DNA of 64,000 nt from Mobula hypostoma. Its lineage: Eukaryota. The stretch spans positions 103,666,001 to 103,730,000 of the forward strand of contig NC_086097.1 of the NCBI RefSeq assembly GCF_963921235.1, written 5' to 3'. Positions within the stretch are counted from its first letter, which is position 1. Each line of letters begins with the position of its first letter. Of the stretch, positions 3,170 through 53,648 are shown in pieces. The notes under the pieces are model-generated. The model ran no database searches. It was not told where the DNA came from and saw only the letters and a list, made by a program, of their open reading frames with translations. A program made the position numbers and the translations under genes.

Positions 3170-4943
3170 ATAGAAACATAGAAACATAGAAAATAGGTGC
3201 AGGAGTAGGCCATTCGGCCCTTCGAGCCTGCACCGCCATTTATTATGATCATGGCTGATCATCCAACTCAGAACCCAGCCTTCCCTCCATACCCCCTGAC
3301 CCCTGTAGCCACAAGGGCCATATCTAACTTCCTTTTAAACATAGCTAATGAACTGGCCTCAACAGTTTGCTGTGGCAGAGAATTCCACAGATTCACCACT
3401 CTCTGTGTGAAGAAGTTTTTCCTAACCTCGGTCCTAAAAGGCTTCCCCTCTATCCTCAAACTGTGACCCCTCGTTCTGGACCTCCCCAACATCGGGAACA
3501 ATCTTCCCGCATCTAGCCTGTCCAATCCCTTTAGGATCTTATACGTTTCAATCAGATCCCCCCTCAATCTTCTAAATTCCAACGAGTACAAGCCCAGTTC
3601 ATCCAGTCTTTCTTCATATGAAAGACCTGCCATCCCAGGAATCAATCTGGTGAACCTTCTTTGTACTCCCTCTATGGCAAAGATGTCTTTCCTCAGATTA
3701 GGGGACCAAAACTGCACACAATACTCCAGGTGTGGTCTCACCAAGGCCTTGTACAACTGCAGTAGTACCTCCCTGCTCCTGTACTCAAATCCTCTCGCTA
3801 TAAATGCCAGCATACCGTTCGCCTTTTTCACCGCTTGCTGTACCTGCATGCCTACTTTCAATGACTGGTGTATAATGACACCCAGGTCTCGTTGCACCTC
3901 CCCTTTTCCTAATCGGCCACCATTCAGATAATAATCTGTTTTCCTATTTTTGCCACCAAAGTGGATAACTTCACATTTATCCACATTAAATTGCATCTGC
4001 CATGAGTTTGCCCACTCACCCAACCTATCCAAGTCACCCTGCATCCTCTTTGCATCCTCCTCACTGCTAACACTGCCACCCAGCTTCGTGTCATCCGCAA
4101 ACTTGGAGATGCTGCATTTAATTCCCTCATCCAAGTCATTAATATATATTGTAAACAACTGGGGTCCCAGCACTGAGCCTTGCGGTACCCCACTAGTCAC
4201 CGCCTGCCATTCTGAAAAGGTCCCGTTTATTCCCACTCTTTGCTTCCTGTCTGCTAACCAATTCTCCACCCACACCAATACCTTACCCCCAATACCGTGT
4301 GCTTTAAGTTTGCACACTAATCTCCTGTGTGGGACCTTGTCAAAAGCCTTTTGAAAATCCAAATATACCACATCCACTGGTTCTCCCCTATCCACTCTAC
4401 TAGTTACATCCTCAAAAAATTCTATGAGATTCGTCAGACATGATTTTCCTTTCACAAATCCATGCTGACTTTGTCCGATCATTTCACCGCTTTCCAAATG
4501 TGCTGTTATCACATCCTTGATAACTGACTCCAGCAGTTTCCCCACCACCGACGTTAGGCTAACCGGCCTATAATTCCCCGGTTTCTCTCTCCCTCCTTTT
4601 TTAAAAAGTGGGGTTACATTAGCCACCCTCCAATCCTCAGGAACTAGTCCAGAATCTAACGAGTTTTGAAAAATTATCACTAATGCATCCACTATTTCTT
4701 GGGCCACTTCCTTAAGCACTCTGGGATGCAGACCATCTGGCCCTGGGGATTTATCTGCCTTCAATCCCTTCAATTTACCTAACACCACTTCCCTACTAAC
4801 ATGTATTTCGCTGAGTTCCTCCATCTCACTGGACCCTCTGTCCCTTACTATTTCTGGAAGATTATTTATGTCCTCCTTAGTGAAGACAGAACCAAAGTAA
4901 TTATTCAATTGGTCTGCCATGTCCTTGCTCCCCATAATCAATT
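3170..4943 (-). mobile_element. CR1 LINE, 5'-truncated, uninterrupted reverse transcriptase ORF2 portion
   Basis: ORF 3268-4962 with PQGSVLGP and FADD RT motifs; 3' tail (TTTCTATG)n at 3170-3195. Confidence 0.95.
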
Positions 4944-5014
4944 TCTTAATGCATGCATGCATTACTAAATTACAATAAAAGAGGACTGCGTGTCTTCATA
5001 ATCTAAAAAAAAAA

Positions 5015-5160
5015 GGGACAATTAATGTTTTAGGTGCAGATGAAGTGTCTCAGCCTGAAACATTGACTAGCCATTTTCCTCCATATATGCTGCCTGAAAC
5101 ATTGAGTTCCTACAGCTTCTTGTGTTGTTCCACATTCACGTATCTGCAATCTTTTGTGAC
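5015..5160 (+). mobile_element. Degenerate Penelope-like terminal remnant with decayed hammerhead motif
   Basis: cagatgaagtgtctcagcctgaaacattgac followed by atgctgcctga, homologous to 40343-40440. Confidence 0.55.
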
Positions 5161-5972
5161 ACTAGTATGAAACAGTTCATTTTAAAACTCTGTTTTTATT
5201 TATGATTTTAAAAATTCTAAAGACCACTTCACAAATTATTGTCACTGAGAAGGTGAGTTAAGTGTTGTTGTTTCCATGGAACTGCTTCTGGGTGGTAGAG
5301 GTTGCAGGCTTGGGTGGTGTTATTGGAGTAGCCCTATGATCAACTGCAGTGAATTTTTATGGTGGTACATATAGCATCAATGTGGTGTGAGTAAACATTA
5401 AGGGTTGTTCCAGATGATCTCAATGCCTGTTTTTGCTCGCTTTGACTGTCAAAACATGGAAGCACCTTCACAAACTCCACAACCTCTGATGACCCTGTGA
5501 TTTCAGTCTCTGAAGTCGATGAAAGAACGTACTTCAGGAGGATGAAGCCATGGAAAACACCTGGGCACGATGGGGTACCTGGCGAGTCCTAAAGACCTGT
5601 GCTGATCAATTGACCTCTCGCTTCAGTAGTCTGAGGTATCCACCTGCTTCAAACAAGCTTCATTTATACAAGTGCCTAAGAAGAATGTAATAACCTGTCT
5701 CAACCAGTCACATTGACAGTACCTCCACTATGAAGAAGTACTTTGAGACACTAATGATGAAACATATCAACTTCTGCCTGAGAAGCGACTTGGATCCACA
5801 ACAGGTCCACAGCAGATGCCATTTCATTAGCTCTTCACTCAACCCTGGAACATCTGGACAGTGAAGATGCATACATCAGGATGCTCTTCAATGGCTACAG
5901 ATCAGCATTCAATACTATCATCCCCTCAAAACTGTGCCTCAATACCTCCTTGTGCAACTGGATCCTCGATTT

Positions 5973-7391
5973 AAGGTTCATTTATTATCAAAGTACACAT
6001 CTTTTGAGATTCTTCTTCTCCAGGTAGCCACGAAATCAAGAAAAAAAAATGCAACACGATCATCAATTCCCAAACCCCCCGCCTCACACAAAACGCAAAA
6101 AGAACATCGTCCTCCAAATCCCCTTCTCCCCACACAAAGAAACTAACAAAAGTAAAATACAACAGGAACATCGATCCAGATCCCCCTCCCTCGCACAATA
6201 CAAATGAGAAAGAATGGGCAAAAACACAGAATATTAAAAACTATAAGGCTGTAAAAAGTCCATAGTCCAAATCCATATCTATAAATGCAGAAAAACTTCA
6301 GTAACATCCTCCAGATACAGCAACAGGCCACACAAGCTCCCTTTTCAGGCAGCAAAGCGATCACACCAGTGATCAGAACCTGGTCCCAACACATTGATAT
6401 AGTCATAGAAAAGGCAAGACAGCGGCTATACTTTATTAGGAGTTTGAAGAGATTTGGCATGTCAACAAATACACTCACAAACTTCTAGTTGTACCGCGGA
6501 GAGCTTTCTGACAGGCTGCATCACTGTCTGATATGGAGGGGCTACTGCACAGGCCCGAAAGAAGCTGCAGAAGGTTGTAAATCTAGTCGGCTTCATCTTG
6601 GGCACTAGCCTACAATGTACCCAGGACATCTTCAAGGAGCGGTGTCTCAGAAAGACAGCATCTATTATTAAAGACCTCCAGCACCCAGGGCATGCCCTTT
6701 TCTCACTGTTACCATCAGGTAGGAGATACAGAAGCCTGAAGGCACACACTCAGCGATTCAGGAACAGCTTCTTCCCCTCTGCCATCCGATTCCTGAATGG
6801 ACTTTGAAGCTTTGGACACTATCTCACTTTTTTAATGTACAGTATTTCTGTTTTTGTACATTTTTAAATAATCTATTCAATATGTTTAATTTACTTGTTT
6901 ATTTATTATGTTTTATTTTATTTATTATAACTATTTTTTTCTGTCTCTGCTAGATGATGTATTGCATTGAACTGCTGCTGCTAAGTTAACAAATTTCATG
7001 TCACATGCCGGTGATAATAAACCTGATTCTGATTCTGATCAGAAGGCAGGCAGCCGGCACTCACCTTTGGCATTCACATCTCTCTCGTCACTTTAATCAG
7101 CAAACAATGAAAGCTTTAATTAGCAAAATGAAGTCAAATATCAGCTCATGCTCATTGCCTCCCAGAATCTTCTTGGAGACAGCAAAGTGCTGGATCACCT
7201 AAACGATCTCCAAAGTGCTGGATCACCCAAACAATCTAAAAAACTGCAAATCACAGGCTCCAAGAGCTCCAGGAACACATTCAAGGTGAAAAACAGATTT
7301 AGAAAACATAAAAGAAGTGAAATAAATAATTTTGTCATCTATCCAGAAGATGTCAACTGTGGGAGCATTGTATGCACGCGCCATCTTGACA
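5973..7391 (-). mobile_element. Probable non-autonomous retroposon, itself interrupted at ~6375-7039
   Basis: Flanked by GATTT duplication (5968-5972, 7392-7396); minus strand starts TGTCAAGATGGCGCG and ends TACTTTGATAATAAATGAACCTT. Confidence 0.5.
6375..7039 (+). mobile_element. Rex/Babar-like LINE 3' fragment
   Basis: KARQRLYFIRSLKRFGM and LLPSGRRYRSL...RFRNSFFPSAIR; AATAAA then (ATTCTG)n tail. Confidence 0.8.
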
Positions 7392-7663
7392 GATTTCCTC
7401 ACTTGCAGACCCCAGTCAGTTAGGATTGACAACATCTCCACAATTACCAACAGGCCAGGTGCACCACAAGGTTGTGTGCTTAGCCCTCTGCCCTATTCAC
7501 TTTATACTTGTGACTGTATGGGTAAGCAGAGCTCTAATACCATATTTGTTTGCTGTCAATACCACTGTCGCTGGCCAAATCAAAGGTGGTGATGATTCAG
7601 CAGATACGAGAGATTGAAAATCTGGCTGAGTGGTGACACAACAACAACCTCTCAAATGCTAGC

Positions 7664-8065
7664 CATAAGACCATAAGACAAGGGAGCAGAGGTCAGCCAT
7701 TCGGCCCATCGAGTCTGCTCCGCCATTTTATCATGAGCTGATCCATTCTCCCATTTAGTCCCACTCCCCTGCCTTCTCACCATAACCTTTGATGCCCTGG
7801 CTACTCAGATACCTATCAATCTCTGCCTTAAATACACCCACTGACTTGGCCTTCACTGCTGCCCGTGGCAACAAATTCCATTGATTCACCACCCTCTGAC
7901 TAAAAAAAATTTCTTCGCATTTCTGTTCTGAATGGGCGACCTTCAATCCTTAAGTCATGCCCTCTCGTACTAGACTCCCCCATCATGGGAAACAACTTTG
8001 CCACATCTACTCTGTCCATGCCTTTCAACTTTCGAACTGTTTCTATGAGGTCTCCCCTCATTCTT
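7664..8065 (-). mobile_element. CR1 3' fragment
   Basis: Near-identical to 42110-42510; (ATGGTCTT)n tail; CTAGC duplicated at 7659-7663 and 8066-8070. Confidence 0.9.
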
Positions 8066-9172
8066 CTAGCAAGACCAAGGAGCTGGTTATTGGCTTCAAG
8101 AAGAGGAAACTGGAGATTCATGAGCCAGTGCTTATTGGGGATCAGAGGTGGAGAAGATCGCCAACTTTAAATTCCTCAGTGTTATAATTTCAGAGGATCT
8201 GTCCTGGGTCCAGCATGTGAATACCATTATGGAAAAAAAGCATGGCAGCACCTCTACTTTCTTAGAAGTTTGAGAAGATTCAGCATGTCATCTAAAACTT
8301 TGACAAACTTCCATAGATATGCAGTGCAGGGTACATTGACTGGTTGCATCATGTTCTGTTATGGAAAGACCACTGCCCTTGAACAGAGAAGCCTACAGAA
8401 AATAGCGGATACACCCAGTCCATCACAGTTAAATCCCTTTCCACCACATCTACGTGAAGTGTTGCCACAGGAAAGCATCATCCATCATCAAAGATCCCCA
8501 CCATCCAGGCCATGTGTTCTTCTTGCAGCTGCCATCAGTAAGGAGGTACAAGAGCCTCAGGACCCACACCACAAGGCTCAGGAATCAATTATTAGGCTCT
8601 TGAACCAGAGGGGATAATTTCACATACCCCATCACTGAACTGTTCCCACAACCTATGGACTAACTTTCAAGGATTTCTTCATTTCATGTTCTTGATATTT
8701 ATTGCTGCATGTATGTTTGTTTGTTTTCTTTAAATTTCTTTTTTTATTTGCACAGTTTGTTGTCTTTTGCACATTTGATGTCCGCTCTATTGGGTGCAGT
8801 CTTTCATTGATTCTACTGTGTTTCTTAGATTTACTATGAAAGCCTGCAAGAAAATGAACTTTAGGGTTATATGTACAATAAATGGTGGCATATATGTACT
8901 TTGATAAAATATTTACCTTGAACTTTGATCAATGTTAGAGATATCTTGTGGTAGTGAAATATGCTGAATAAATTTAACTATTTCTTCTTTCTCACTCGAA
9001 GGAAAGAATCTAAGTTTTCCTTACCCCACTTAACACAGCAGTAATGTATCACACATCTTCAAAATAACATCCAGCAACTTAAACTGAGATGAAGAACTTA
9101 CATTGAATTTTCCAAACTGGGATGTGTAAGAAGTGTAAATTCTGAACAGAGTGAAGGATGCTTTATTATGTA

Positions 9173-23345: not shown

Positions 23346-23378
23346 CTTGCATATCCTTGGTGTCAGTCCAATTGATGC
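23346..23378 (-). CDS. STARD9: STARD9 kinesin motor exon, 33 nt
   Basis: cccacag|GCATCA...TGCAAG|gtatg; ASIGLTPRICK, in frame with neighbours; too short for the ORF track. Confidence 0.9.
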
Positions 23379-24884: not shown

Positions 24885-25134
24885 TAACAGTACCTGTCCC
24901 ATGATCATCTCATATCCCTTTTGCCAATCAACTGTCCAGCTCTTAGCTCCATCCCTCCCCCCCGTCTTCTCCTATCATTTCAGATCTCCCCCTCCCCCTC
25001 CCACTTTCAAATCTCTTACAAGCTCTTCTTTCAGTTAGTCCTGACGAAGGGTCTCAGCCCGAAACATCAACTGTACCTCTTCCTCGAGATGCTGCCTGGC
25101 CTGCTGCGTTCACCAGCAATTTTTGTGTGTGTTG
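24885..25134 (+). mobile_element. Penelope-like terminal fragment with hammerhead motif (25037-25072)
   Basis: 10-bp TSD CTATGCCTCA (24875-24884, 25135-25144); agtc CTGACGA agggtctcagccc GAAAC ATC. Confidence 0.85.
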
Positions 25135-25439: not shown

Positions 25440-28400
25440 ACTGAACTTGGAATTTATCCACCTTAATATTCTTTAAGTGACTGAATACTCCCTGTTTCTT
25501 TACCTGCAAATGCTTGAGCATATTAGAATGCTCCAAACAGATCTCACATCCTCCATGTCTGCTTCTTTGTAAATACCAGTGCAAATTTTGGCCCTCAGCT
25601 GCACCCTCTACCTCCAAGCACATGTTCTCTTGTTTATCCTTGAGTGGTCCTCCCTTCTTCCTAGTTATCCTCTTATGCTTGCTGCATGTATGGTACGCCT
25701 TGGGATTTGCTTTAATCCTGTTTGCCAAGGATTTTTCATGCCCCTCTTGTCTCTTCTAATTCCCTTTTTTGTGTTATTTTTCACTTTTATCATCCTCAAA
25801 GGCAACATTTGATTTTTAGCTTCCGAAATCTTACATACTCTTCCTTTCTCTTGACTAAATTCACCACCTCTCATGGCATACAGATTGCCTTTACATTGCC
25901 ATCCTTCTTACTAGAATATTACTGTTCTATATTCTATGTAGTTGATCTCTAAGCACTCTCAACGTCAGATGTGTACTTGCCAAAGACAGCCGTTCCCAAT
26001 TAACTCTCCCTAGTTTCTGCCTAATACTCTTGTAATTTGTCCTGCTCCAATTAAATATCCTTCCTCAAGGTCGATACTTTTCCTTACTTACAGTTATCTT
26101 AAAACATAAGATATTGCTACTGCTGTTCCCTAAATGTTCTCCAGTGAAAGGTCAGTCACCTGGCCTGGCTCATCTCATAACACCCAGAGCAGTATGGCTT
26201 CTCCACTTCTTGAACTATTTTCATACTGATTAAGAAACTCACACAAAATGCTAGAGGAACTCAACAAATCAGACAGCATCTATGGAGAGGAATAAGCAAT
26301 TTTGAGCCTACAATGGAACTGGAAAGGAAGGCAGAAGAACCCAGAATAAGAACATGTGGGTAGGGGGAAGAGTACAAGCTGGCAGATAATAGATCAAGCC
26401 AGGTGAGGTAGAAGGTCAGTGGGCAGGGATGAAGTGAGAAACTTAGGCTAAGTGGCCTAATTCTGCTCTTACTATAAAAGAGGATACCAAAAGTTTTGTC
26501 AGATATGTAAGGAGTAAAAGAAAGGCAAGACTAGATATTGGATTGCTGGAAAGTGAGGCTGGAGAGGTAGTAATGGGGGACAAACTCAATAAGTATTTTG
26601 CATCAGTCCTTACTGTGGAAGACATGAGCAGTATACCAAAATTGCAGAGCCAGGGGGCGGAAGTGAATGTAGATGCTACTACTAAAGAGAAGGCGCTTGG
26701 GAAGCTGAAAGGTTTGAAGTTAGATAAGTCACCTGGACTAGATGGACTACACCCCGGCAATCTGAAAAAGGTAGCTAAAGAGATTTGCAGATGCATTAAT
26801 AGGGATTTTTCAAGAATCACTGTATTATGGAATGGCTCCAGAAGACTGGAAAATTGAAAATGTCACTCACTCTTTAAGAAGGGAGAGAGACAAAAGACAG
26901 GAAATAATAGGCCAGTTAGCCTAATTTCAGTGCTGACTAAGATGCTGGAGTCCATTGTTAAGGATGAGGCTTTGAGATACTTTGAAGCTCATAATAGAAC
27001 AGGAAAATGTCAGCAAGGTTTTCTTAAGGGGAAATCATCCTTGACAAATCTGTTGGAATTTTTTGAGGAAATAACAAGCAGGGTGGGCAATGGAGGAATG
27101 GGCAAAATTTGGCAGAAGGAATAAAAGTGTAGACTACTTTATAAATGGGGAAACAATTCAAAAATCAGAGATGCAAAGGGACATGGGAGTTCTTGTGTAG
27201 GATTCCCTAAATGTTAACTTGCAGGTTGAGTTAGTGGTAAGGAAGGCAAATGCAATGTTAACATTCAAGTGGACTTGAATATCAAAGCAAGGATGTAATG
27301 CTAAGGCTTTCTAAGGAATTGGGCAGACCACACTTAGATTATTGTGTGCAGTTCTGAGTGCACATCTAAGAAAAGATGCGCTGGCATTAGAGAGGGTCAC
27401 TAGAATTATCCCAGGAATGAAAGGGTTAAGGAGTGCTTAATGGCTCTAGGCCTGTACTCGCTGGAGTTTAGAATAAGGACCGAGGGATCTCACTGAAACA
27501 GAGGGCTAGATAGAGTGGATGTGGAGATGATGTTTCCAATAGAGAGAGAGTCTAGGACCAGAGGGCATAGCCTCAGAAATGAAGAACATCCATTTAGAAC
27601 AGAGATGAGAAGGAATTTCTTTAGTCAGAGGGTGGTGAATCTGTGCAATTCATTGCCACAGACAGATAATAGGTTATTGATTAATCAGGGTGTCGAAGGT
27701 TACAGGGAGAAGGCAGGAGAATGGGGTTGAGAGGGATAATAAATTAGCCATAATGGAATGGCAGAGTAGACTCAATGGGCCAAATGGCCTAATTCTACTC
27801 CTGTGTCTTATAATATTATAGGACAGACGAAAAGGAGTCAGTGAATATTTTTTATTTGGATTCCCAGAAGACCTTTGACAAGGTGCCCATAGTATTACAA
27901 GAAAGATACAGGCATGGACAGAAGATTGACTGACTGGTAGGAGGCAAAGAGTGGGAATAAAGGAAGTATATTCTAGGTGGCTGCTGGTGACTAGTGGTAT
28001 TACACAGGGGTCAATGTTGGGACTGCTTCTTTTCATGTTATATGTCAATGATTTGGAAGATGGAATTGATAGCTCTTTGGCCAAGTTTGCAGATGGTAGA
28101 AAGATAGATAGAGAAACAGGGAGTCTGCAGAAGGACTTAAACAGATTAGGAGAATGAGCAAAGAAGCAGCAAATGGAATATATTGTAGAGAAGTGTATGA
28201 TCATGCACTTTGACAGAAGGAATAAAGGTGTAAATGATTTTCTAAACAGGGAGCAAATTCAGAAATCAGAGGTGCAAAACCTAGTAAGGAAACCTCAAAC
28301 AGGATTCCCTAACGGGTAACTTGCAGGTTCAGTTGGTGGCAAGGAAGACAAATGCAATGTTAGCATTCATTTTGAGAGGACTGGAATATAAAAGGATGTA

Positions 28401-31270: not shown

Positions 31271-34200
31271 TTTTTTTTTAATTTTATTTTTATTTGGATA
31301 AGGAGTTCACAATTATCATGTACTTTTTTCACACATATAACCTTTTCCATTTTTTCATATGTATAAAACTACAATTATTTATACATTCTTAAGTACACAT
31401 TGAGATGATATCAAAGCAAAATAAACATTTAAATAGATAGTTACGTACTGTGGTAAATCTAACCTATTAGGCTAAGTAATGAAATTAGTTGTTAAGAAAA
31501 ATGGTAATAATAGTTTCCATACAACCCTTCCGGACCACTTCCACTGGTCCAAAATGTTGCATACAAGCCTATATACCAACCATTATAGGTGTTTATATCC
31601 CAATTTGTTCATGCTTGTTCCTGCCCGCAGACATAATTATCCAATCCCTATGTACTTATTTACTTAATTTTTTCATTTTTTTTATCCCTTTCCCAAATCT
31701 TTCCCTTTACTTGTGTTAATTCTCTATTTTCCAAAAAAAAACAACAAACATTTAGACTAGGGGTGCTATATTACTGTGTTGATGAGAAGAGCAATATAAA
31801 TCATTAGGAGAGTCATCTAAAGTCTGCTCGCATTGGAGTTATATATTCAATCCATTTATTCCAGATTTGATAAAATGTTTCTTTTTGAGTTCTCAGGGAG
31901 TAGGTCAACTTTTCCATTTTAAATATTTCCAAGATAATTGCGTACCAATCTTCTAATGTAGGTGGTATTGGATTTAGCCATTTTCTAGTGATTGATTTCT
32001 TACTTGCCGCTAAGAGGGCCTGCAGCAACTTTATATCTTCCTTCTGTTCAAGGAACAATACATGTCCCAAATAGAGCGTCTCAAAGTTCAGAGGTATCTG
32101 GGACCTAAGTACCTTAACTAATGTTCTATGAATACCTTCCCAAAATAGACTTAATTTAGGGCAATCCCAGAAAATATGAAAATGATTTGCCTCCTTGGAG
32201 CCACACCTTCTCCAACACATCACATTTGTATCTTTATATTTTTCCTGATATGGGGTCTTGAAGTATCTTATAATGTTTTTCCAACAATGTTCTCTCCAAG
32301 TCAAAGAATTAGTCGAGGACCATTGAAAGCTGCAGATTTTCCCCCAAGCCTCCTCTGAAAGTACCAACCCCGCTTCTTTCTCCCACTTCTCTTTAATATA
32401 CAGTGTATTTACATTTTTAGCATGGGAGAGTGCATTATATAGGCGAGAAACTGATTTACTAGGTATTGAACTGCAAGCCGAATTCAGAATCTTGAAAAAT
32501 TCTAATTCTACTGTTACACACATCAAAGTTGCTGGTGAACGCAGCAGGCCAAGCAGCATCTATAGGAAGAGGCGCAGTCGACGTTTCAGGCTGAAACGTC
32601 GACTGCGCCTCTTCCTATAGATGCTGCTTGGCCTGCTACGTTCACCAGCAACTTTGATGTGTGTTGCTTGAATTTCCAGCATCTGCAGAATTCCTGTTGT
32701 TTTAATTCTACTGTTGATAGGTCTGTATATCTACAACTCTGGTTAACATAGTTTCGTATTTGAAGGTACCTAAAAAAGTCATTATGTTCTAGGCCATGTT
32801 TGTCCTGCAGGATTTGGAAACTTTGTAATACTCTTTTATCTATAAATGAGAGGTAGGTTGTAAGACCTTTCTTTATCCATAGCTCAAATCTTTTATCTCC
32901 TCTGTTGGGAAGGAATTCGGTATCATATGCACACCATCTGAAGAGTTTTAGCATGTTATTAATTCCACATGAATTAACCACCTTCTGCCATACTTTTAAT
33001 GTAAGATTTATCCAAGCATTATTAAATTTTTCCAACTGGGCCATCAATCCTTTGTCAGCTATTGAGGCCTGAAGAGGAAAACTGTCAACTAATCCAAATT
33101 CTATTTCCTTCCATCTAGCCTTATATTCCCTATTACACCAATATAACAGAGGGGTTATCTGTGAGGCATAAAAATAATTTCTCAGGCGAGGAAGAACCAT
33201 ACCTCCTCTTTCCTTCCCTAACTGTAAGGTGTTATATCGAATTCTAGGTTTCCTTCCTTGCCAAATGAAGCAGGAAATCCATTTGTCCCATTCCCTGAAT
33301 TGATTATCATCCACCTCCACTGGTAAAGTACGGAAAAGATATAATAACCGAGGAAGAATATTCATTTTTATAGTATTTATCCTTGAATTTAAACTTAAAA
33401 AGGGGATAAGATTCCATCTATGCATATCTGCTTTTATCTCTGAGATTAATGGCCCATAATTTACCTGTGACAGTGTTGAAAGATCCTTTGGCAGGGTTAT
33501 TCCTAAATATTTTAATGATTTAGCTTCCCACTTAAGATTATATGTATCCTGCAATTTTTTGGATGGTGTATAATTTAGGGACATAACCTGTATTTTCTTT
33601 ACATTTATTTTATAACCTGATATTTTCCCAAAGTCATCCAACAGTGTAAACAATCCTATAAATGATTTTTCTGGTTCACTCAGATAGACCAAAACATCAT
33701 CTGCGAATAACGCCACTTTCTGTTCAATCCCTGCCACCTTGATACCTTTTACGATTTCGCTCTGTCTTATTAGTTGGGCAAGTGGTTCAATATATAGCGC
33801 TAAAAGGAGAGGAGAAATTGGGCATCCCTGTCTAGTGCCTCTCTCTAAAATGAAGGAGTCAGAGAGGTCCCCATTTATCTTAATTCGGGCTGTTGGGCTG
33901 TCATACAGAGTCTGAATTACTTTAATAAACCTTTCTTGAAAGCCGAATCTTCCTAACACTCTGTATAGGAATGCCCAACTAACCAAATCAAAAGCTTTCT
34001 CAGCGTCCAATCCTACTACCATTGTCTCTGTCTCGTTCTTATTAACCTGTTCTAATATGTGCAGAGTTCTCCTTACGTTGTCCTGTGTTTGTCTTTGTTG
34101 AATAAATCCAGTCTGGTCTAAATGGATTAGGCCAGGTAAAAGCTTTTCCAATCTGCGCGCTAATATAGATGTAAATAGTTTGTAATCTAAATTAAGAACA

Positions 34201-34662
34201 CTAATTGGCCGATAATTGCCACATTCTAGTTTATCTTTACCCTCTTTAGGAATAACTGAAATAATCGCTTCTCTCCAGGAAGGTGGAGTTTCTCCTCTCT
34301 GCAAGATCCAATTAAAGGTGTTAAGTAGTAATGGGGTTAACTGTGTCTTCAGGGACTTGTACCACTCTGAGGTAAACCCATCAGAACCCGGGGACTTTCC
34401 AGCCTTTAACCTAGAGATGGCCACGTTCAGTTCTTTGACAGTTACTGGTTCTAATAAACTTTCATTTTGTAAATCTGTAAGTTTAGGTAGATCTAAAAAA
34501 TTCAATACACTGTCTATATAGGGCTCATTGGGGGCCCGGGGTTGGGAGTACAGCTCTCGATAATACGTTTCAAAACTCTCTTGAATTTTCCCTATTGTAC
34601 TCTCCACAAGCTTTGTCTTTGGATTCTTTATTTTATGAATTGTATTGTCTGCTTGTTGTTTT
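31271..34662 (-). mobile_element. L1 LINE, 5'-truncated, ORF2 open apart from one PLE insertion
   Basis: 15-bp TSD GTCACTCTTTAATTC (31256-31270, 34663-34677); poly(A) at 31271-31279; RT motifs QGCPISP and FADD; CWRRC...HIFWDC knuckle. Confidence 0.95.
32516..32702. mobile_element. Palindromic Penelope-like insertion
   Basis: 74-bp inverted arms centred on 32590 plus terminal tail; 13-bp TSD TAATTCTACTGTT (32503-32515, 32703-32715). Confidence 0.9.
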
Positions 34663-36152
34663 GTCACTCTTTAATTCAATTCAAAATTGTATATCGTTAA
34701 TATTTGACACAGGAGAGACTGTCTAAAATATATCCTAATGTCAATAGTCAGTGTGATAGATGTAAAACTGAGACAGCTACATTGACACATATGTTTTGGT
34801 CGTGTTCTGTATTGAAACAGTTTTGGAAATCTATTTTCTCTACAATTTCTAAAGCTTTAAAAATTAAATTACAACCTAATAAATTGACAGTTTTGTTCGG
34901 TATAATCCCTCAATATATTCATGGTATTTCTATATCAGACCAACATGTAATTGCATTTGTTAACATTATTGGCCAGTCGGGCTATTTTATTGAAATGGAA
35001 AGATGCCTCGGCTCCCACTTTGATACAATGGTTCTCTCAGGTGATGTTATGTCTCAGTTTGGAGAAAATCAGAAGCCAAACTTTTGATCCTCGATTTGAC
35101 CTTGAGAAAAGGTGGGGGTCCTTTTGCCCGCTACTATCATTTGATTTGAGTTAATTAAGATGGTCCCTTCTGATTCTTGTTTAAATGGATTTGAGTTGGC
35201 GGTTTGATGTTTTTCTTTTATGGAAGCTTGTATGGCGTATAGCTCCGGGGTAGTGCTCCCAATGGTTTTTTTTTTCGTGTTTTATTTCTGTTAGTAGGGG
35301 GTTTTGTTGTTTTAGTTAGTAGGAGTTCTTTTTTCCTTCTTTTTTCCAAAAAAATAGTTCTGACATTTTATTTTTTTTCTTATTATTGATATATTGTTTA
35401 GCTTTGTTAATCAGTTATTTGATAATTTAATTCTTATTGAACATATTGACATGTTGACTTGATTACTTTAATTTTTTTGTTGATTTTCAATAATAATTAA
35501 TAAAAAAGATTTGAAGATGAAAAATGAAAATGAACATGTAGTTGTTTTTATTGGACCCTCTTTCATATGAAACAAAATCAAAGGCCCACCTGGCCTCTCA
35601 GCTGAATGTACCACTTTGAAGGTGAGTTATTTTCATGGTTAATCTTCATTTCTCATTCTATATATAGTTGAAGAAATGGATTGAATAATCTGCTCATTGG
35701 GACTTCTTTTGCACAAACTGTTGCTGGTATTTTGCACATTGCGACTTCACTTCAAAATCATTTCCGTGCTTCCTAGTTGAACTTTTGCAACAAAAAAAAG
35801 GCCAAATTCAAACAAACTCAAAGACAGTGGTCATTCTGAGTTGCTTTTCATTGGTACGTCAGTTGAAAACTAAGTTAGCTTGCATAAGGTATCTGAAAAA
35901 CACCAAATTAAGTCATTCATTAGTGAAGATTGTATCTGGCATTATTCCCAGCACAGTCTCACAGCTGCACAGAGTGGAAATTGGTTACAGTGAGTGTCTT
36001 TCATAAATGAAGTGAATTGGTTGGTTTATGAGCTATAAAGAACATATGAACAAAACTAACAAAATGACATAGAACTGCATTGGTTTCTTTCTCATGCTTA
36101 GCTTATAAAAAAACAGCAGAACCAACATAAAAAGCATGACTTGAATACTCAC

Positions 36153-36269
36153 TGGTGTCCCCATCATAGTGTACGTTTTTCCTGAGCCAGTCTGTCCATA
36201 AGCAAACAAACAGACATTGTAGCCCTCAATAGCTCCTGATAGAACTGAAGTGCCAAGATCCTGATACAC
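36153..36269 (-). CDS. STARD9: STARD9 (KIF16A) kinesin motor exon containing the P-loop, 117 nt
   Basis: tttgcag|GTGTAT...ACACCA|gtgagt; translates [39 protein letters not shown] (Walker A GQTGSGKT). Confidence 0.93.
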
Positions 36270-39764: not shown

Positions 39765-40240
39765 TGAGAGGTTGGTGATGAAACATATCAACTCCTGCCT
39801 GAGAAGCAACTTGGGTCTGCTTCAATTGACCTTCTAGCACAACAGGTCCACAACAGATGCTATTTCATTGGCTCTTCACTCAACCTGGGAACATCTGGTA
39901 ATCAAAGACATACAGCAGTATGCTCTTTAGTGACTACAGCTCAGCAATAAAATACCGTAATTCCCTCAAAACTAAACAATAAGCTTCAAGACCTTGGCCT
40001 CAATACCTTCTTGTGCAATTCAATCTTTGACTTCTTCACTTGCAGAACACAGTCAGGTCGGATGAGCAACATTTCCCCCATCATCTGCATCAGCATGGGT
40101 GCACCACAAGGCTGTGTACATAGCCCCCTGTTCTACTCGCTTTATACTTATGACTGTGAGGCTAAGCACAGCTCCAATGTCACGCTTAAGATTATTGGCA
40201 ATGCCACTGTCATAGGCCAAATCAAAGATGGTGACAAATT
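39765..40240 (+). mobile_element. Rex/Babar-like RT fragment
   Basis: GAPQGCVHSPLFYSLYTYDC; homologous to 5740-5970 and 7400-7590. Confidence 0.75.
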
Positions 40241-40268
40241 TGACGCCAAAGAATACCCGTGAGTAAGA

Positions 40269-40441
40269 AACAACAGGAATTCTGCAGATGCTGTAAATTC
40301 AAGCAACATACATCAAAGTTGCTGGTCACTCTTCCTTCAGTTAGTCCTGACGAAGGGTCTCAGCCTGAAACGTCGACTGCGCTTCTTCCTATAGATGCTG
40401 CCTGGCCTGCTGCGTTCACCAGCAACTTTGATGTATGTTGT
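40269..40441 (+). mobile_element. Penelope-like insertion with inverted terminal segment
   Basis: 13-bp TSD CCCGTGAGTAAGA (40256-40268, 40442-40454); reverse arm ~40269-40326, forward arm to 40440. Confidence 0.9.
40343..40378 (+). ncRNA. Minimal type I hammerhead ribozyme motif
   Basis: Stem I AGTC/GACT, core CTGACGA (40347-40353), stem II AGG-gtctcag-CCT, GAAA, palindromic ACGT stem III, GUC triplet with predicted cut after 40374. Confidence 0.75.
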
Positions 40442-40611
40442 CCCGTGAGTAAGAGGTGGTCACCAAAGGTGGTGACAAAGCTGAACTGCCTTAAATACAC
40501 CTAATGACCTGGCTTCCACAGACACCTGTGGCAGCAAATTCCACAGATTCACCACCCTCTAGCTAAAGAAATTCCTCCTCATCTCTGTTCTAAATGGATG
40601 TCACTTTATTC

Positions 40612-42107: not shown

Positions 42108-45030
42108 GACCATAAGACCATAAGACAAAGGAGCAGAAGTAGGCCATTCGGCCCATCGAGTCTGCTCCGCCATTTTATCATGAGCTGATCCATTCTCCCA
42201 TTTAGTCCCACTCCCCCACCTTCTCACCATAACCTTTGATGCCCTGGGTACTCAGATACCTATCAATCTCTGCCTTAAATACACCCAATGACTTGGCCTC
42301 CACTGCTGCCCGTGGCAACAAATTCCATAGATTCACCACCCTCTGACTAAAAAAATTTCTTCGCATTTCTGTTCTGAAAGGGCGCCCTTCAATCCTTAAG
42401 TCATGCCCTCTCGTACTAGACTCCCCCATCATGGGAAACAACTTTGCCATATCCACTCTGACCATGCCTTTTAACATTCGAAATGTTTCTATGACGTCTC
42501 CCCTTATTCTTCTAAACTCCAAGGAATACAGTCCAAGAGCGGACAAACATTCCTCATATGTTAATCCTCTCATTCCCGGAATCATTCTAGTGAATCTTCT
42601 CTGTACCCTCTCCAATGTCAGCACATCCTTTCTTAAATAAGGAGACCAAAACTGCCCACAGTACTCCAAGTGAGGTCTCACCAGCGCCTTACAGAGCCTC
42701 AACATCACATCCCTGCTCCTATACTCTATTCCTCTAGAAATGAATGCCAACATTGCATTTGCCTTCTTCACCACTGACTCAACCTGGAGGTTAACTTTAA
42801 GGGTACCCTGTACGAGGACTCCCAAGTCCCGTTGCATCTCAGAACTTTGAATTCTTTCCCCATTTAAATAATAGTCTGCCCATTTATTTTTTCTGCCAAA
42901 GTACATAAACATACACTTTCCTGACGAAGGGTCTCGGCCTGAAACGTCGACTGCACCTCTTCCTACAGATGCTGCTTGACCTGCTGCGTTCACCAGCAAC
43001 TTTGATGTGTGTTGTTCCAACATTGTACTTCATTTGCCACTTCTCTGCCCATTCTTCCAATCTATCCAAGTCTCTCTGCAGACTCTCCGTTTCCTCAGCA
43101 CTACCGGCCCCTCCACCTATCTTCGTATCGTCAGCAAACTTAGCCACAAAGCCATCTATTCCATAATCCAAATCGTTGAAGTACAATGTAAAAAGAAGGG
43201 GCCCCAACACTGATCCCTGTGGAACACCACTGGTAACCGGCAGCCAACCAGAATAGGATCCCTTTATTCCCACTCTCTGTTTCCTGCCAATCAGCCAACA
43301 CTCTATCCACGTATGTAACTTTCCTGTAATTCCATGGGCTCTTATCTTGTTAAGTAGCCTCATGTGTGGCACCTTGTCAAAGGCCTTCTGAAAATCCAAA
43401 TATACAGCATCCACTGCATCTCCCTTGTCTAGCCTACTGGTAATTTCCTCAAAAAATTGTAATAGGATTGTCAGGCAGGATTTTCCTTTAAGGAATCCAT
43501 GCTGAGTTCTGCCTATCTTGTCATATGCCTCCAGGTACTCTGTAACCCCATCCTTGACAATCGACTTCAACAACTTCCCAACCACCGATGTCAAGCTAAC
43601 AGGTCTATAATTTCCTTTTTGCTTCCTTGCCCCCTTCTTAAATAGCGGAGTGACATTTGCAATCTTCCAGTCTTCCGGAACCATGCCAGAATCTATCGAC
43701 TTTTGAAAGATCATCGCTAATGCCTCCGCAATCTCCACAGCTACTTCCTTCAGAACACGAGGGTGCATTCCATCTGGTCCGGGAGATTTATCTACCTTTA
43801 GCTTATTCAGCTTCCTGAGTACTTTCTCTGTCGTAATTGTGACTGCGCACACTTCTCTTCCCTGCCACCCTTGAGTGTCTGGTATACTGCTGATGTCTTC
43901 CTCAGTGAAGACTGATGCAAAATACTCGTTCAGTTCCTCTGCCATCTCCTTATCTCCCATTACAATTTCTCCAGCATCATTTTCTATCGGTCCTATATCT
44001 ACTCTCACCTGTCTTTTACTCTTTATATACTTGAAAAAGCTTTTAGTATCCTCTTTGATATTATTTGCTAGCTTCCTTTCATAGTTAATCTTTTCTCTCT
44101 TAATGACCTTCTTAGTTTCCTTTTGTAAGGTTTTAAAAACTTCCCAATCCTCTGTCTTCCCACTAATTTTTGCTTCCTTGTATGCCCTCTCCTTTGCTTT
44201 AACTTTGGCTTTGACTTCTCTTGTCATCCACGGTTGCATCCTTTTTCCACTCGAAAATTTCTTCGTTTTTGGAATATACCTGTCTTGCACATTCCTCACT
44301 TCTCACATAAATCCAGCCACTGCTGCTCTGCCGTCTTTCCCACCAGTGTCCCTTTCCAGTCAACTTTGGCCAGTTCCTCTCTCATGCCACTGAAATTTCC
44401 TTTACTCCACTAAAATACCAACACATCGGATTTCGGCTTCTCTTTTTCAAATGTCACAGTGAACTCAATCATGTTATGATCACTGTCTCCTAAGGGTTCC
44501 TTCACCTCAATCTCTCTAATCACTTCCAGTTCATTATACAATACCCAATCCAGTACAGCTGATCCCCTAGTGGGCTTAACAACAAGCTGTTCTAAAAAGC
44601 CATCTCGCAGACATTCTTCAAATTCTCTCTCTTGAGATCCAGTGCCGACCTGATTTTTCCAATCTACTCGCATGTTAAAATCCCCCACAATTATCATAAC
44701 ACTGCCCTTCTGACAAGCCTTTTCTATTTCCAGTTGTAATTTGTCGTCCACATCCCTGCAGCTGTTTGGAGGCCTATAAATAACTGCCATCAGGGTCCTT
44801 TTACCCCTGCTATTTCTTAGCTCAACCCATAAAGATTCTGCACCTTCCGATCCTATATCACCTCTTTCTAATGATTTAATATCAATTCTTACCAATAAAG
44901 CCACGCCTCCCCCTCTGCCTACCTTCCTATCCTTCCGATACACCGTGTATCCTTGGACGTTCAGCTCCCAGAGACATGCATCCTTTAACCAGGTCTCAGT
45001 GATGGCCACAGGGTCATCATTTATAAATAG
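42108..45030 (-). mobile_element. CR1 with near-complete ORF2 (APE+RT)
   Basis: ORFs 44410-45126 (ITETW, GDFN, SDH), 42884-44299 (RT) and 42202-43023; (ATGGTCTT)n tail. Confidence 0.93.
42921..43014 (+). mobile_element. 94-bp Penelope-like insertion beginning at the hammerhead core
   Basis: CTGACGAAGGGTCTCGGCCTGAAACGTCGACTG...GTGTGTTG; TTCC on both sides; interrupts the CR1 RT at KYNVG/KCM. Confidence 0.88.
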
Positions 45031-46159
45031 GACCAGGGTCCTATTTAGCTGTAACATTACCCCTCGGCTCTTAAACTCAACCCCACGGTTGATGAAGGCC
45101 AATGCACCATGTGCCTTCTTAACCACAGAGTCAACTTGCGCAGCAGCTTTGAGTGTCCTATGGACTCAGACCCCAAGATCCCTCTAATCCTCCACACTGC
45201 CAAGAGTCTTACCGTTAATAATACATTCTGCCATCATATTTGACCTCCCAAAATGAACCACCTCACACTTATCTGGGTTGAACTCCATCTGCCACTTCTC
45301 AGCCCAGTTTTGCATTCCATCAATGTCCCACTGTAACCTCTGACAGCCCTCCACACTATCCACAACTCCCCCAACCTTTGTGTCATCAGCAAATTTACTA
45401 ACCCACCTCTCCACTTCCTCATCCAGGTCATTTATAAAAATCACAAAGAGAAGGGGTCCCAGAACAGATCCCTGAGGCACACCACTGGTCATCAATCTCC
45501 ATGCAGAATGTGTTCCATCTACAACCACTCTTTGCCTTCTGTGAGCAAGCCAATTCTGGATCCACAAAGCAAACTTCTGGCATTCTACCAGTGTCTTCCA
45601 CAGTGAAGACTGATGCAATACACTTATTCAGATCATCCAGCATTTTCTTACTAACTCTCCAGCATCATTTTTAGTGGTTCAGTGTCTACTCTCATCTCTC
45701 CTTTACTCTTTTCATATCTGAAAAAAAACTTTTGGTATCCTCTTTGATATTATTGGCTAGCTTCCCTTAATATTTCATCTTTTCCCTCCTTATGGCTTTT
45801 TTAATTGCCTTCTGTTGGTGTTTAAAAGCTTCCCAATCCCCTAACTTCCTACTAATTTTTGCTCTGTTATATGCCTCCTCCTTTGCTTTTATATTGGCAT
45901 TGACTTCCCTTGTCACCAATAGCTGCATCATCCGGCCTTTAGACTACTTCAGCTTTGCGATGTATCTATTCTGTGCCATCCGAATTGCTCCAGCCATTGC
46001 TGTTTTGGTGTCACCCTGCTAGTGTTCCCTTCCAGACAACTTTGGCCAGGTCCTCGCTCATGCCCCTGTAGTATTCTTCACTCCACTATAAAACTGATAC
46101 ATTTGACTTTAGCTTCTCCCTCTCAAATTGCAGGTTGAATTCTATCAAATTACGATCAA

Positions 46160-48076
46160 ATGAAGAGCTGGGAAATCATTGGTGAATAAGATAAAGGGTT
46201 GGGAAGGGGGAATCTGATGGGAGAGGACAGAAGGTCATGGAAGAAAGGGAAGGGTGGGAACATTAGAGGGCGGTGATAGCAGGTAAGGTGATAAGGTGAG
46301 AGAGGGAAATGGGAATGGGGAATAGTGAGGAAGTAGGGGGCATTACCGGAAGTTCAAGAAATTTATGCCATCAGGTTGAAGTTCCCCAGACGGAATATAA
46401 GGTGTTGCTCCTTCAAACTCCTCCATCGTGGCAGTAGAGGAGGCCATGGACTGACTTGTTGGAATGGGAAGTGGACTGAAAATGGGTGGCCATTGGGAGA
46501 TCCTACTTTTTCTGGTGGATGAAGTGTAGGTGCTCGGCGAAGCACTCTCCCAATCTACATTGGGTATTACGAATATACAATAGTGCAGACTATAATCTAA
46601 ATGGGGAGCAAGTTCCAACATCAGAGGTGCAGAGGGACTTATGAGTTCTCATGCAAAACTCCCAGAAGGTTAATTTATGGGTTAAGTCTGCGGTAAAGAA
46701 GGCAAATGAAATGCTAGCATTTACTTCAAGGGGAATAGAATATAAAAACAAGGAGATAATGCTGAGGCTTTACTACTCAGGCCGCACTTGGAGTATTGTC
46801 AACAGCTTTGGGCCCCATATTTCAGAAGGAATGTGTTGTCATTGGGGAGAGTTCAGAGGAGGTTCACAAGGATGATTCTGGGAATGAAGGGGTTAACACA
46901 TGAGGAACACTTGGCAGCTTTGGGCCTGTACTCACCAGAATTTAGAAGAATGTGGGTGGGGGGGAGGATCTCATTGAAACCTACTGAATGTTCAATCAGA
47001 TAAGGTGAATATGGAGAGGGTGTTTCCTATGGTGGGGGTATCCAGAACTAAAGGGTACATCCTCAAAATTGAGGGGCAACCTTTTAGAACAGAAGTAAGG
47101 AGGAATATTTTTAGCTGTGGAATGCTCTGCCACAGACTATGGTGGAGCCCAAGTCCGTGGGTATATTTAAGGTGGAAGTTGATAGTTTCTTGATCGGTCA
47201 GGGCACCAAAGGATATGGTGAGAAGGCAGGTGTATGGAGTTAAGTGGGATCAGGGATCAGCCATGATGGAATGGTGGAGCAGACTCGATGGGCTGAATGG
47301 CCTCATTCTACTCCTATGACTTATGGTCTTATGGATATACAGGAGGCCTCACCAGGAGCACACTTGCACCTACGCATCCTCCCTCACTACCATTCAGGGG
47401 CCCAAACAGTCCTTCCAAGTGAGGTGACACTTTGCCTGTGAGTCTTTTAGGGTCATCTACTGTATCTGGTGCTCCCTGTGTGGCTTCCTGTATATCGGTG
47501 AGACCCGACGTAGATTGAGAGACCGATTCACTGAGACCCTACACTCTATCTGCCAGAAAAAGCAGGATCTCCCAGGGGCCACCCATTTTAATTCCACTTC
47601 CGTGGCCTCTTCTACTGCCACGAAGAGGCCACACTCAGGCTGGAGGAGCAACACCTTATGTCCCATTTGAATAGCCTCCAACCTGATGGCATGAGCATCC
47701 ACTTCTCAACCTTCCAATAATGCCCCTCTCCTCTGCTTCACCATTCCCCATTCCCCTCTCTCAACTTATCATCTTAACTGCTCTCCCTCTGGTGCTCCTT
47801 TCACTTCTCTTTCCTCCATGGCCTTCTATCCTCTACTATCAGATATCCCTTCTTCAGCCCTTTATCTCTTTCACCAATCAACTTCCCAGCTCTTTACTTC
47901 ACCCCTCCCTGTCCCAGCTTCACCTCTCATCTTGTGTTTCTTCCTCCCCCTCCCCCACTTTCTTATTCTGATTCATCTTTTTTCTCCAGTCCTGATGACG
48001 GGACTCAGCCAAAAATATCAACTGTTTACTGGATGCTGCCTGACCTGCCAAGTTCCTCCAGCATTTTGTGTGTGTT
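46160..48076. mobile_element. Penelope-like element with GIY-YIG endonuclease remnant, inverted arms, split by a CR1 fragment
   Basis: Plus arm encodes VIYCIWCSLCGFLYIGETRRRLRDRF (47452 onward) and ends with a decayed hammerhead at ~47987-48024; minus arm 46160-46579 and 47335-47360. Confidence 0.82.
46580..47334 (+). mobile_element. CR1 3' fragment
   Basis: 7-bp TSD ATATACA (46573-46579, 47335-47341); RVQRRFTRMI; TCTTATGG tail. Confidence 0.85.
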
Positions 48077-48254
48077 ATCCAAGTGACCATCACATTTTCA
48101 TAAAAGCAAAACATTAGTCTTTGCAATTTATGCTTTCAGAACACATTTTAGTCAGAGAATAAAACAGTGTAACATCACTAGTAGCTGTAAGATCCATTTT
48201 TTTCAAGACATGCTGAAAACTACAACATTCCCACATTTACTGAGGTCGTTTACT

Positions 48255-53220: not shown

Positions 53221-53599
53221 TCTGTTTTTGAGCCAACTCTGCACCCATTCGCACTTCTTACCCTGAATCCCTACCTCCTGTAATTTGATTATTAACCTCT
53301 CATGGGGTACCTTGTCAAAAGCCTTCTGAAAGCCCAAGTAAGTGATATCAACTGCTTGACTGTTATAAACTTTTTTTGCCTCCTCATAGAACTCCAGCAT
53401 TTAGTAAAACATGGTTTCCCCTTTCTGAACCCATGATAGCTTTTTACTAATGTGCCTGTTCTTATTAGCCACTTTTCCATCTCATTCTTTATTAATGTTT
53501 CCATTATCTTACTTACGACAGATGTTAAGCTTATTGGTGTATAGTTATCAGGGTCAGTGCGGTCACTCTTCTTATGTTAGTCTATTTCCCATCCAATGG

Positions 53600-53648
53600 A
53601 AAAAAGTACAGTCAACGTTTCAGGCCTGAACCCTTTGGCAGGACTAAC
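53600..53648 (-). mobile_element. PLE fragment with mutated hammerhead core
   Basis: Minus strand gttagtc CTGCCAA agggttcaggcct GAAAC GTT gactg. Confidence 0.7.

Follow-up and report, generated by a model that had tools for sequence, protein, structure and literature searches.

We consider it very probable that the motif at positions 40343 to 40378 of the window (the whole stretch of DNA that was analysed, 64,000 nucleotides in length) is a minimal hammerhead that belongs to the pseudo-LTR of a Penelope-like element (PLE) of the GIY-YIG type, and that the short inserts in which it and its homologues are found are 5′-truncated, partly inverted, dead copies of such an element and not a separate element. 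Hammerheads of this kind have been known since 2014, most commonly as single copies left by truncation. The preliminary description of this DNA had recognised a Penelope-type minimal type I hammerhead, and the core, the topology, the palindrome and the pseudo-LTR context all fit that assignment.

The motif at 40343-40378 (+) was described as containing every hammerhead core base, with a 4-bp stem I and a palindromic ACGT instead of stem III; the letters were confirmed as quoted, and both structural features were found in the sequence. It fits the published consensus of a minimal type I hammerhead, in which stem I is formed by 40343-46 and 40375-78 plus a U-G pair, core residues C3 to A9 are at 40347-40353, an unpaired A is at 40354, stem II is formed by 40355-58 and 40363-66, G12 to A15.1 are at 40367-40370, and the palindromic ACGT at 40370-40373 replaces helix III without a loop. 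The cut is predicted after C17 at 40374. A short stem II had also been described, and a 4-bp stem, of which two pairs are G-U, does exist; the A-U register proposed for it was rejected, as it had a pair probability of 0.02, compared to 0.88 to 0.98 on folding for the register that leaves A40354 unpaired and has G10.1 next, which is the published register. Position 11.1 is U in this copy, forming a wobble with G10.1, and C in the copy at 25041.

A descriptor that combined the core, a stem II of at least 2 bp and a stem I of at least 4 bp matched once in the 64 kb, at 40343-40378, and the same descriptor gave a mean of 0.15 matches on 100 shuffles, with a match in 13 of the 100. The bare core pattern was not significant in itself (3 in the window, 1.3 expected), and therefore the case for the motif is built on the family and on the published consensus. 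The folding z-scores of the motif were unremarkable. A search with the Rfam hammerhead models had been suggested, and neither the 64-kb window nor the segment 40300-40420 gave a hammerhead match at E ≤ 10. The Rfam hammerhead models need helix III.

The connection to a PLE was made through the homologue at 47988, which lies about 270 bp downstream of a GIY-YIG endonuclease remnant at 47359-47717. The remnant is broken, and its Pfam GIY-YIG match (E 0.006) is below the cut-off. For the 60-aa remnant, a word-index search of proteins scored none of 14 candidates, and a full HMMER (phmmer) search returned 974 relatives at E ≤ 0.001. The best of these was a Hypanus sabinus protein (P0002), 72% identical over 81 aa and aligned to the last codons of the ORF, and the best protein relatives came from stingray, whale shark, skate and sevengill shark, which points to a cartilaginous fish, likely a ray, as the source of the DNA. 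Reverse transcriptase (RT) and GIY-YIG occurred together in 2 of the 9 relatives scanned; 10 relatives matched at the endonuclease end only, and neither RT sequence nor a full-length copy was found among the window fragments. We also noted that Penelope endonuclease ends are annotated inside host proteins (mucin-2, receptor-transporting protein 3-like) in P0002, P0014 and P0017, from ray, shark and skate, which represents either misannotation or exonisation.

The homologue at 47988 is connected to the motif at 40343 by a chain of homology, in which 47863-48076 aligned to 24913-25133 at 72% and 25023-25134 aligned to 40329-40440 at 88%; compared directly, the older, GIY-YIG-attached subfamily and the 40343 copy were 71% identical over 89 nt. 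A pseudo-LTR location behind a PLE ORF is seen for 47988 and, through the homology chain, is indicated for 40343. Since the GIY-YIG sequence was seen on the older subfamily only, we infer the ORF and autonomy of the young subfamily. The endonuclease link and the homology chain together indicate that the short inserts are the 3′ ends of an endonuclease-bearing PLE. The earlier proposal of a separate, non-autonomous retrozyme-like family finds no support: 47988 is the 3′ pseudo-LTR of a GIY-YIG element, and the copies have their 3′ ends in common and not their 5′ ends.

The element is likely to belong to the Neptune clade, judging from the linker motif and the best hits and not from an RT tree. 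A Cys-rich linker (CX2-5CxxC) before the endonuclease is described as a mark of Neptune and Nematis (PMC8557442), so that the linker motif alone does not separate the two. The Hypanus sabinus protein carries a CKRKCxxC linker, and the window remnant begins within the linker and keeps its last part. Three contig collections, of viral, prokaryote and metagenome sequences, yielded 0 loci in pattern scans.

The 40343 insert occupies 40269-40441 between 13-bp target-site duplications (left copy 40256-40268, right copy 40442-40454) and is composed of two arms. The inverted arm (40269-40326, −) is the last 58 nt of the element including a 36-nt tail, and the forward arm (40327-40441, +) is a 5′-truncated pseudo-LTR of 115 nt that ends at the short 3′ end (40440), before the tail. 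A variant common to 40304-40326 and 40418-40440, one segment in each arm, was absent from the other window copies, and this private variant makes it likely that one template gave rise to both arms. A second inverted insert (32516-32702), a palindrome centred near 32589 with its short-end arm on the − strand and its tail-bearing arm on the + strand, is flanked by 13-bp duplications at 32503 and 32703. Here a half motif had been noted at 32591, and it was confirmed as the 3′ half of a hammerhead, the only half in this insert and present in duplicate. The plan is the same in both inverted inserts: the target duplication measures 13 bp, and of the two arms one stops at the short end and the other extends 36 nt further into the tail. 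Duplications of 13, 13 and 10 bp were found at three of the seven inserts searched, and those of 13 bp, at the two youngest inserts, were perfect. An Rfam match to mir-3926 (45 bits, gathering threshold 82) was discarded, as it reflected merely the palindrome at 32541-32639.

The insert at 32516 splits a long LINE RT frame at 31813-34670 (−; 694 aa plus 248 aa), which we take to be L1/Tx1-like, and because the LINE halves are otherwise in one frame, both the LINE and the insert are young. The window, vertebrate in origin, is rich in LINE fragments. It contains young CR1-like LINE pairs of 93 to 94% identity at 3174-4943/51452-53220 and 7663-8081/42110-42525, and an open RT frame of 575 aa is kept in a CR1-like LINE at 3268-4995.

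All six of the homologues named in the preliminary description were found to exist (profile E 1e-78 to 2e-12, with the profile built from these copies), and three further remnants were identified, at 26229, 2653 and 46158. The inserts are not confined to the 95 to 250 bp that had been estimated: they measure anywhere between about 60 bp and 740 bp or more. The core and stem I are both intact in one of the seven named copies, that at 40343. A 250-bp 3′ fragment at 24885-25134 (+), composed of UTR plus hammerhead (C3 at 25041) and ending at the short end, has a 10-bp duplication (24875/25135); in this copy G16.2 and G1.1 are changed to A, and the palindrome and the closing pair of stem I are lost. 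A simple stub of about 97 bp at 42919-43015 (+), inside a CR1-like LINE, also ends at the short end, and its first base falls within the 5′ arm of stem I, most of which is absent. The copy at 5036-5163 (+) is old, retains the tail and has U4 and C17 changed, and that at 53590-53648 (−) is short and degenerate, with A6, G8 and C17 changed. The older-subfamily 3′ fragment at 47341-48078 (+) comprises the broken linker and GIY-YIG end (47359-47717), a pyrimidine-rich 3′ UTR and a hammerhead homologue, from 47988, that is degenerate, with core changes. The remaining fragments are an old 3′ fragment with an eroded hammerhead core at 26229-26436 (−; E 1.3e-10), a faint old 3′-end remnant at 2653-2704 (−; E 4e-4), and a second GIY-YIG/UTR remnant, without a hammerhead, at 46158-46586 (−). 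The last of these and the fragment at 47341-48078 (+) lie head-to-head across a CR1-like fragment and may go back to a single old inverted insertion, in spite of an identity of only 71%.

The abundance of the family and its joints were evaluated in contigs of four of the 23 listed runs (X1, X2, X11 and X12, with three species labels), aligned to 40150-40560 at 80% likeness. The summed depth in X1 was 4.0 to 4.6 million over the ribozyme and 11 to 36 on the barest flank bins; depth is not copy number, but together with the 10 fragments in 64 kb it suggests on the order of 10^5 remnants in the genome. The description of a recently mobile family inside a gene was upheld by the perfect 13-bp duplications of the two youngest inserts, by the 88 to 96% likeness of the family copies and by the high copy number. 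One X2 contig matched 40154-40255 with a single difference, and the piece of it that is listed breaks off right in front of the duplication, as expected of an empty allele; this is only a hint, since the corresponding joint was not one of those shown. Of 117 joints 15 were shown, and 13 of these connected a reversed tail to a forward arm, at varying points, which indicates that the inversion recurs independently. Loose contig ends behind 40440 had the tail first and then diverged. The C at position 11.1 accounted for 25, 33, 16 and 70% of the depth in X1, X2, X11 and X12, respectively. In X12, the last stem I position (40378) was A in about 70% of the depth, and stem I would be shorter in this species if the 5′ arm has no compensating change.

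The 5′ ends of the copies cluster where the hammerhead's 5′ arm lies, in a way that random truncation does not predict: 11 of the 13 listed inversion joints restart at 40340-40354, an interval chosen post hoc from a partial set of joints (15 of 117 shown) in which other subfamilies stop aligning at 40343, and four of the seven copies in the window have their 5′ end no more than 20 nt from C3. This crowding is compatible either with stalling of RT in the folded ribozyme or with a short RNA that starts there. The second possibility forms part of an unlikely alternative, that rays carry a self-spreading mini-Neptune of about 100 to 140 nt, a non-autonomous, SINE-like derivative of the pseudo-LTR whose short RNAs would run from the hammerhead 5′ arm to the tail and would rely on the Neptune protein for copying in trans. 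It would have reached some 10^5 copies in order of magnitude, and priming would occur on both target strands from two fixed start sites. Stem I would overlap its 5′ boundary, which would be either a start site or a splice acceptor. Consistent with this alternative, 8 of the 10 window fragments are without ORF sequence, pLTR sequences in Adineta suffice for mobilisation in trans, and the intron in D. virilis ends at helix I. An AG precedes stem I in all three copies checked; at 40343-40346, 25037-25040 and 47988-47991 the 5′ arm begins with AG behind a pyrimidine run, resembling a splice acceptor, and the copy at 42919 begins immediately behind the AG; however, the pyrimidine run (72 to 83%) is no richer than the UTR as a whole (81%). 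The 5′ ends and joints also still vary, in that the fragment at 24885 extends 156 nt upstream of C3 and that at 47341 extends into the ORF, and the joints listed are 15 of 117, with a bias that comes from subfamily divergence. If true, the mini-Neptune would be one of the largest vertebrate hammerhead loads and a genome-scale record of two-site priming that is so far known only in vitro.

The joints and ends also bear on whether the inserts are retrozymes, that is, whether hammerhead-processed tandem units gave monomer circles that were reverse-transcribed and reinserted. Retrozymes are tandem units expressed as circles (PMC7229834); they derive from PLE pseudo-LTRs and have been reported in one chondrichthyan, with monomer derivatives (bioRxiv 10.64898/2026.07.22.740005); a few back-going joints in the run contigs would agree with such an origin. 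In contrast, no tandem units of the insert were found in the 64-kb window, the inserts are not permuted around the cut site and all end 66 or 102 nt beyond it, and no pile of ends was seen in any of the four runs, which is weak evidence since contigs cannot reveal RNA ends or circles. Moreover, the retrozymes first described carry canonical and not minimal hammerheads (PMC7229834), and the homologue at 47988 follows the end of a GIY-YIG ORF. The non-LTR retrozymes resemble the family of the 40343 copy in having a type I hammerhead, an origin in PLE pseudo-LTRs and a similar size range, whereas this family has a minimal ribozyme, inverted arms with a tail, and neither tandems nor monomers running from cut site to cut site. 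Because tandem units and cut-site ends are lacking, the inserts are not retrozymes as far as the 64-kb window shows, and we regard this explanation as very improbable, though retrozyme arrays may exist elsewhere in the genome; the retrozyme-like units of the preliminary description are better described as truncated PLE copies with an inverted arm and tail.

Excess conservation of the core, whose absence had been named among the refuting observations, was of borderline significance. Core positions of the seven copies had changed less than non-core positions (6 of 78 compared to 84 of 526), with p 0.06 for all sites and p 0.046 for non-CpG changes (2 of 58 compared to 54 of 428). These counts come from copies that are not independent and were found partly via the motif, and they omit the eroded copies at 26229 and 2653 and the duplicate left arm of the 32516 insert; 26229 would weaken the excess. 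Because old and young subfamilies are mixed in the count, the lower rate of core change fits selection in the master lineages, and it could also mean selection on the copies. Among the rows shown for 40367-40374, the changes were CpG-type transitions, at 3 to 5% in X1 (G12, C15.2, G16.2 and C17).

On folding of the 40343 monomer, the two core strands were predicted to pair with each other (p 0.98 to 1.0), and stem I within the whole insert had p ≤ 0.03. The active dimer was predicted at −11.9 kcal/mol and the best co-fold at −25.6 kcal/mol, i.e., the active form was about 14 kcal/mol worse; such energies leave tertiary contacts and proteins out of account. The prediction is that the monomer misfolds and that the lone 40343 copy does not cut. 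Work on dimer cleavage is reportedly that of Lunse et al., as cited in a review.

The gene that contains these inserts is STARD9. An internal exon encoding part of the kinesin motor was identified at 36153-36269 (−), up to 95% identical to shark proteins, with further exons near 23378, 22712, 10323 and 2590 (−), so that the minus strand carries five exons from 36269 down to 2520; the 5′ exons were not found in 36270-64000. Judging from the internal exon at 36269, 40343 likely sits in a STARD9 intron. That the 40343 copy is active, or has been co-opted, as a ribozyme directed at the STARD9 transcript is extremely improbable, even though it is the sole copy with an intact core and stem I and has this likely intronic position. 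The copy is antisense to STARD9 and so would not cut the pre-mRNA, it has no dimer partner and is predicted to misfold, and its intactness is explained by its young age. Five of the seven copies that cover the 5′ core are antisense to STARD9 (5036, 25041, 40347, 42921 and 47992, +); the sense copies at 53648 and 26330 (−) have ruined cores, and these numbers are too small to evaluate purging of sense-strand ribozymes from introns, for which a ray genome would be suited. Because the family is so abundant, such a genome would also be a good one in which to measure PLE RT stops relative to the ribozyme.

Returning to truncated PLE copies as the preferred explanation, we propose an insertion mechanism that is likely by analogy with the PAc system of the anole. 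A tandem master copy would be transcribed, an RT-GIY-YIG protein would nick both target strands 13 nt apart, and reverse transcription would begin downstream of the hammerhead, which stays uncut, at either of two fixed internal sites with a spacing of 36 nt; synthesis would mostly stop after 60 to 250 nt. Priming on one strand would give a simple stub, and priming on both strands would give an insert whose arms lie head-to-head and of which just one bears the tail. Because the copies span the cut site, their templates were uncut, as in PAc. The hammerhead would act, if at all, only in the tandem transcript of the master, as a dimer formed via the ACGU palindrome and probably helped by protein, and lone genomic copies such as 40343 would be inactive passengers that decay largely at CpG sites.

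Minimal hammerheads were described in the pLTRs of metazoan PLEs by Cervera and De la Pena in 2014 (PMC4209133), with the consensus CUGANGA-H ... GAAA ... UH, an extra base, a stem II that starts with G, and a palindrome (PMC4209133 supplement). The 40343 motif is like these in its extra base before G10.1, its short stem I and its loopless palindromic 15/16 positions, and the published examples are mostly single motifs from truncated PLEs, as in the window. The same layout is seen in a Neptune example from Acropora (PMC4209133), which agrees in its core, its extra A and its CG-UC ending. The 40343 motif differs in its short stem II (4 bp, two of them G-U) and in having U in place of C11.1. The number of motifs given for coelacanth and Xenopus is 4,000 to 9,000 (PMC4209133), and the density of remnants here looks far above this, by a different measure. 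No cartilaginous fish names occur in the searchable supplement of that paper, and no publication specific to hammerheads or Penelope in cartilaginous fish was among the literature matches listed; the supplements of the 2026 preprint and file 1 of PMC4209133 may include the family.

The structure of the inserts is also that of PLE insertions, which are described as having 5′ truncation, an inverted adjacent copy and a 30- to 40-bp tail at one end (PMC8557442, PMC3846280). Endonuclease-bearing PLEs of the Neptune clade combine a C-terminal GIY-YIG domain that has CxxC between the tyrosines, as found here too, with a Cys-rich linker, which is present in the closest relative of the window remnant, and their inverted, 5′-truncated arm and 30- to 40-bp tail compare with the 36-nt tail found here (PMC8557442). 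In this comparison the window remnant is broken and starts inside the linker, and RT was not seen in the window.

The closest functional comparison is with PAc, a Poseidon element of Anolis carolinensis that cuts and extends both target strands in vitro, starts reverse transcription at two internal sites bracketing the tail, from uncut RNA, and has a hammerhead that cuts only with protein present (PMC11167929). PAc belongs to another clade and has an ORF that begins within stem II; in the present family, the ATG that follows the hammerhead runs into a stop codon in the space of 17 codons. At both ends the sense strand is UG-rich here and not AC-rich, and the target at 40256 is not AT-rich. The two systems are alike in having two fixed 3′ ends around the tail, downstream of an uncut hammerhead, and in using both strands. 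The geometry of the two inverted inserts agrees with priming of both strands from two start sites, as demonstrated in vitro for a Poseidon element, and would carry this mode of priming over to a Neptune-type family.
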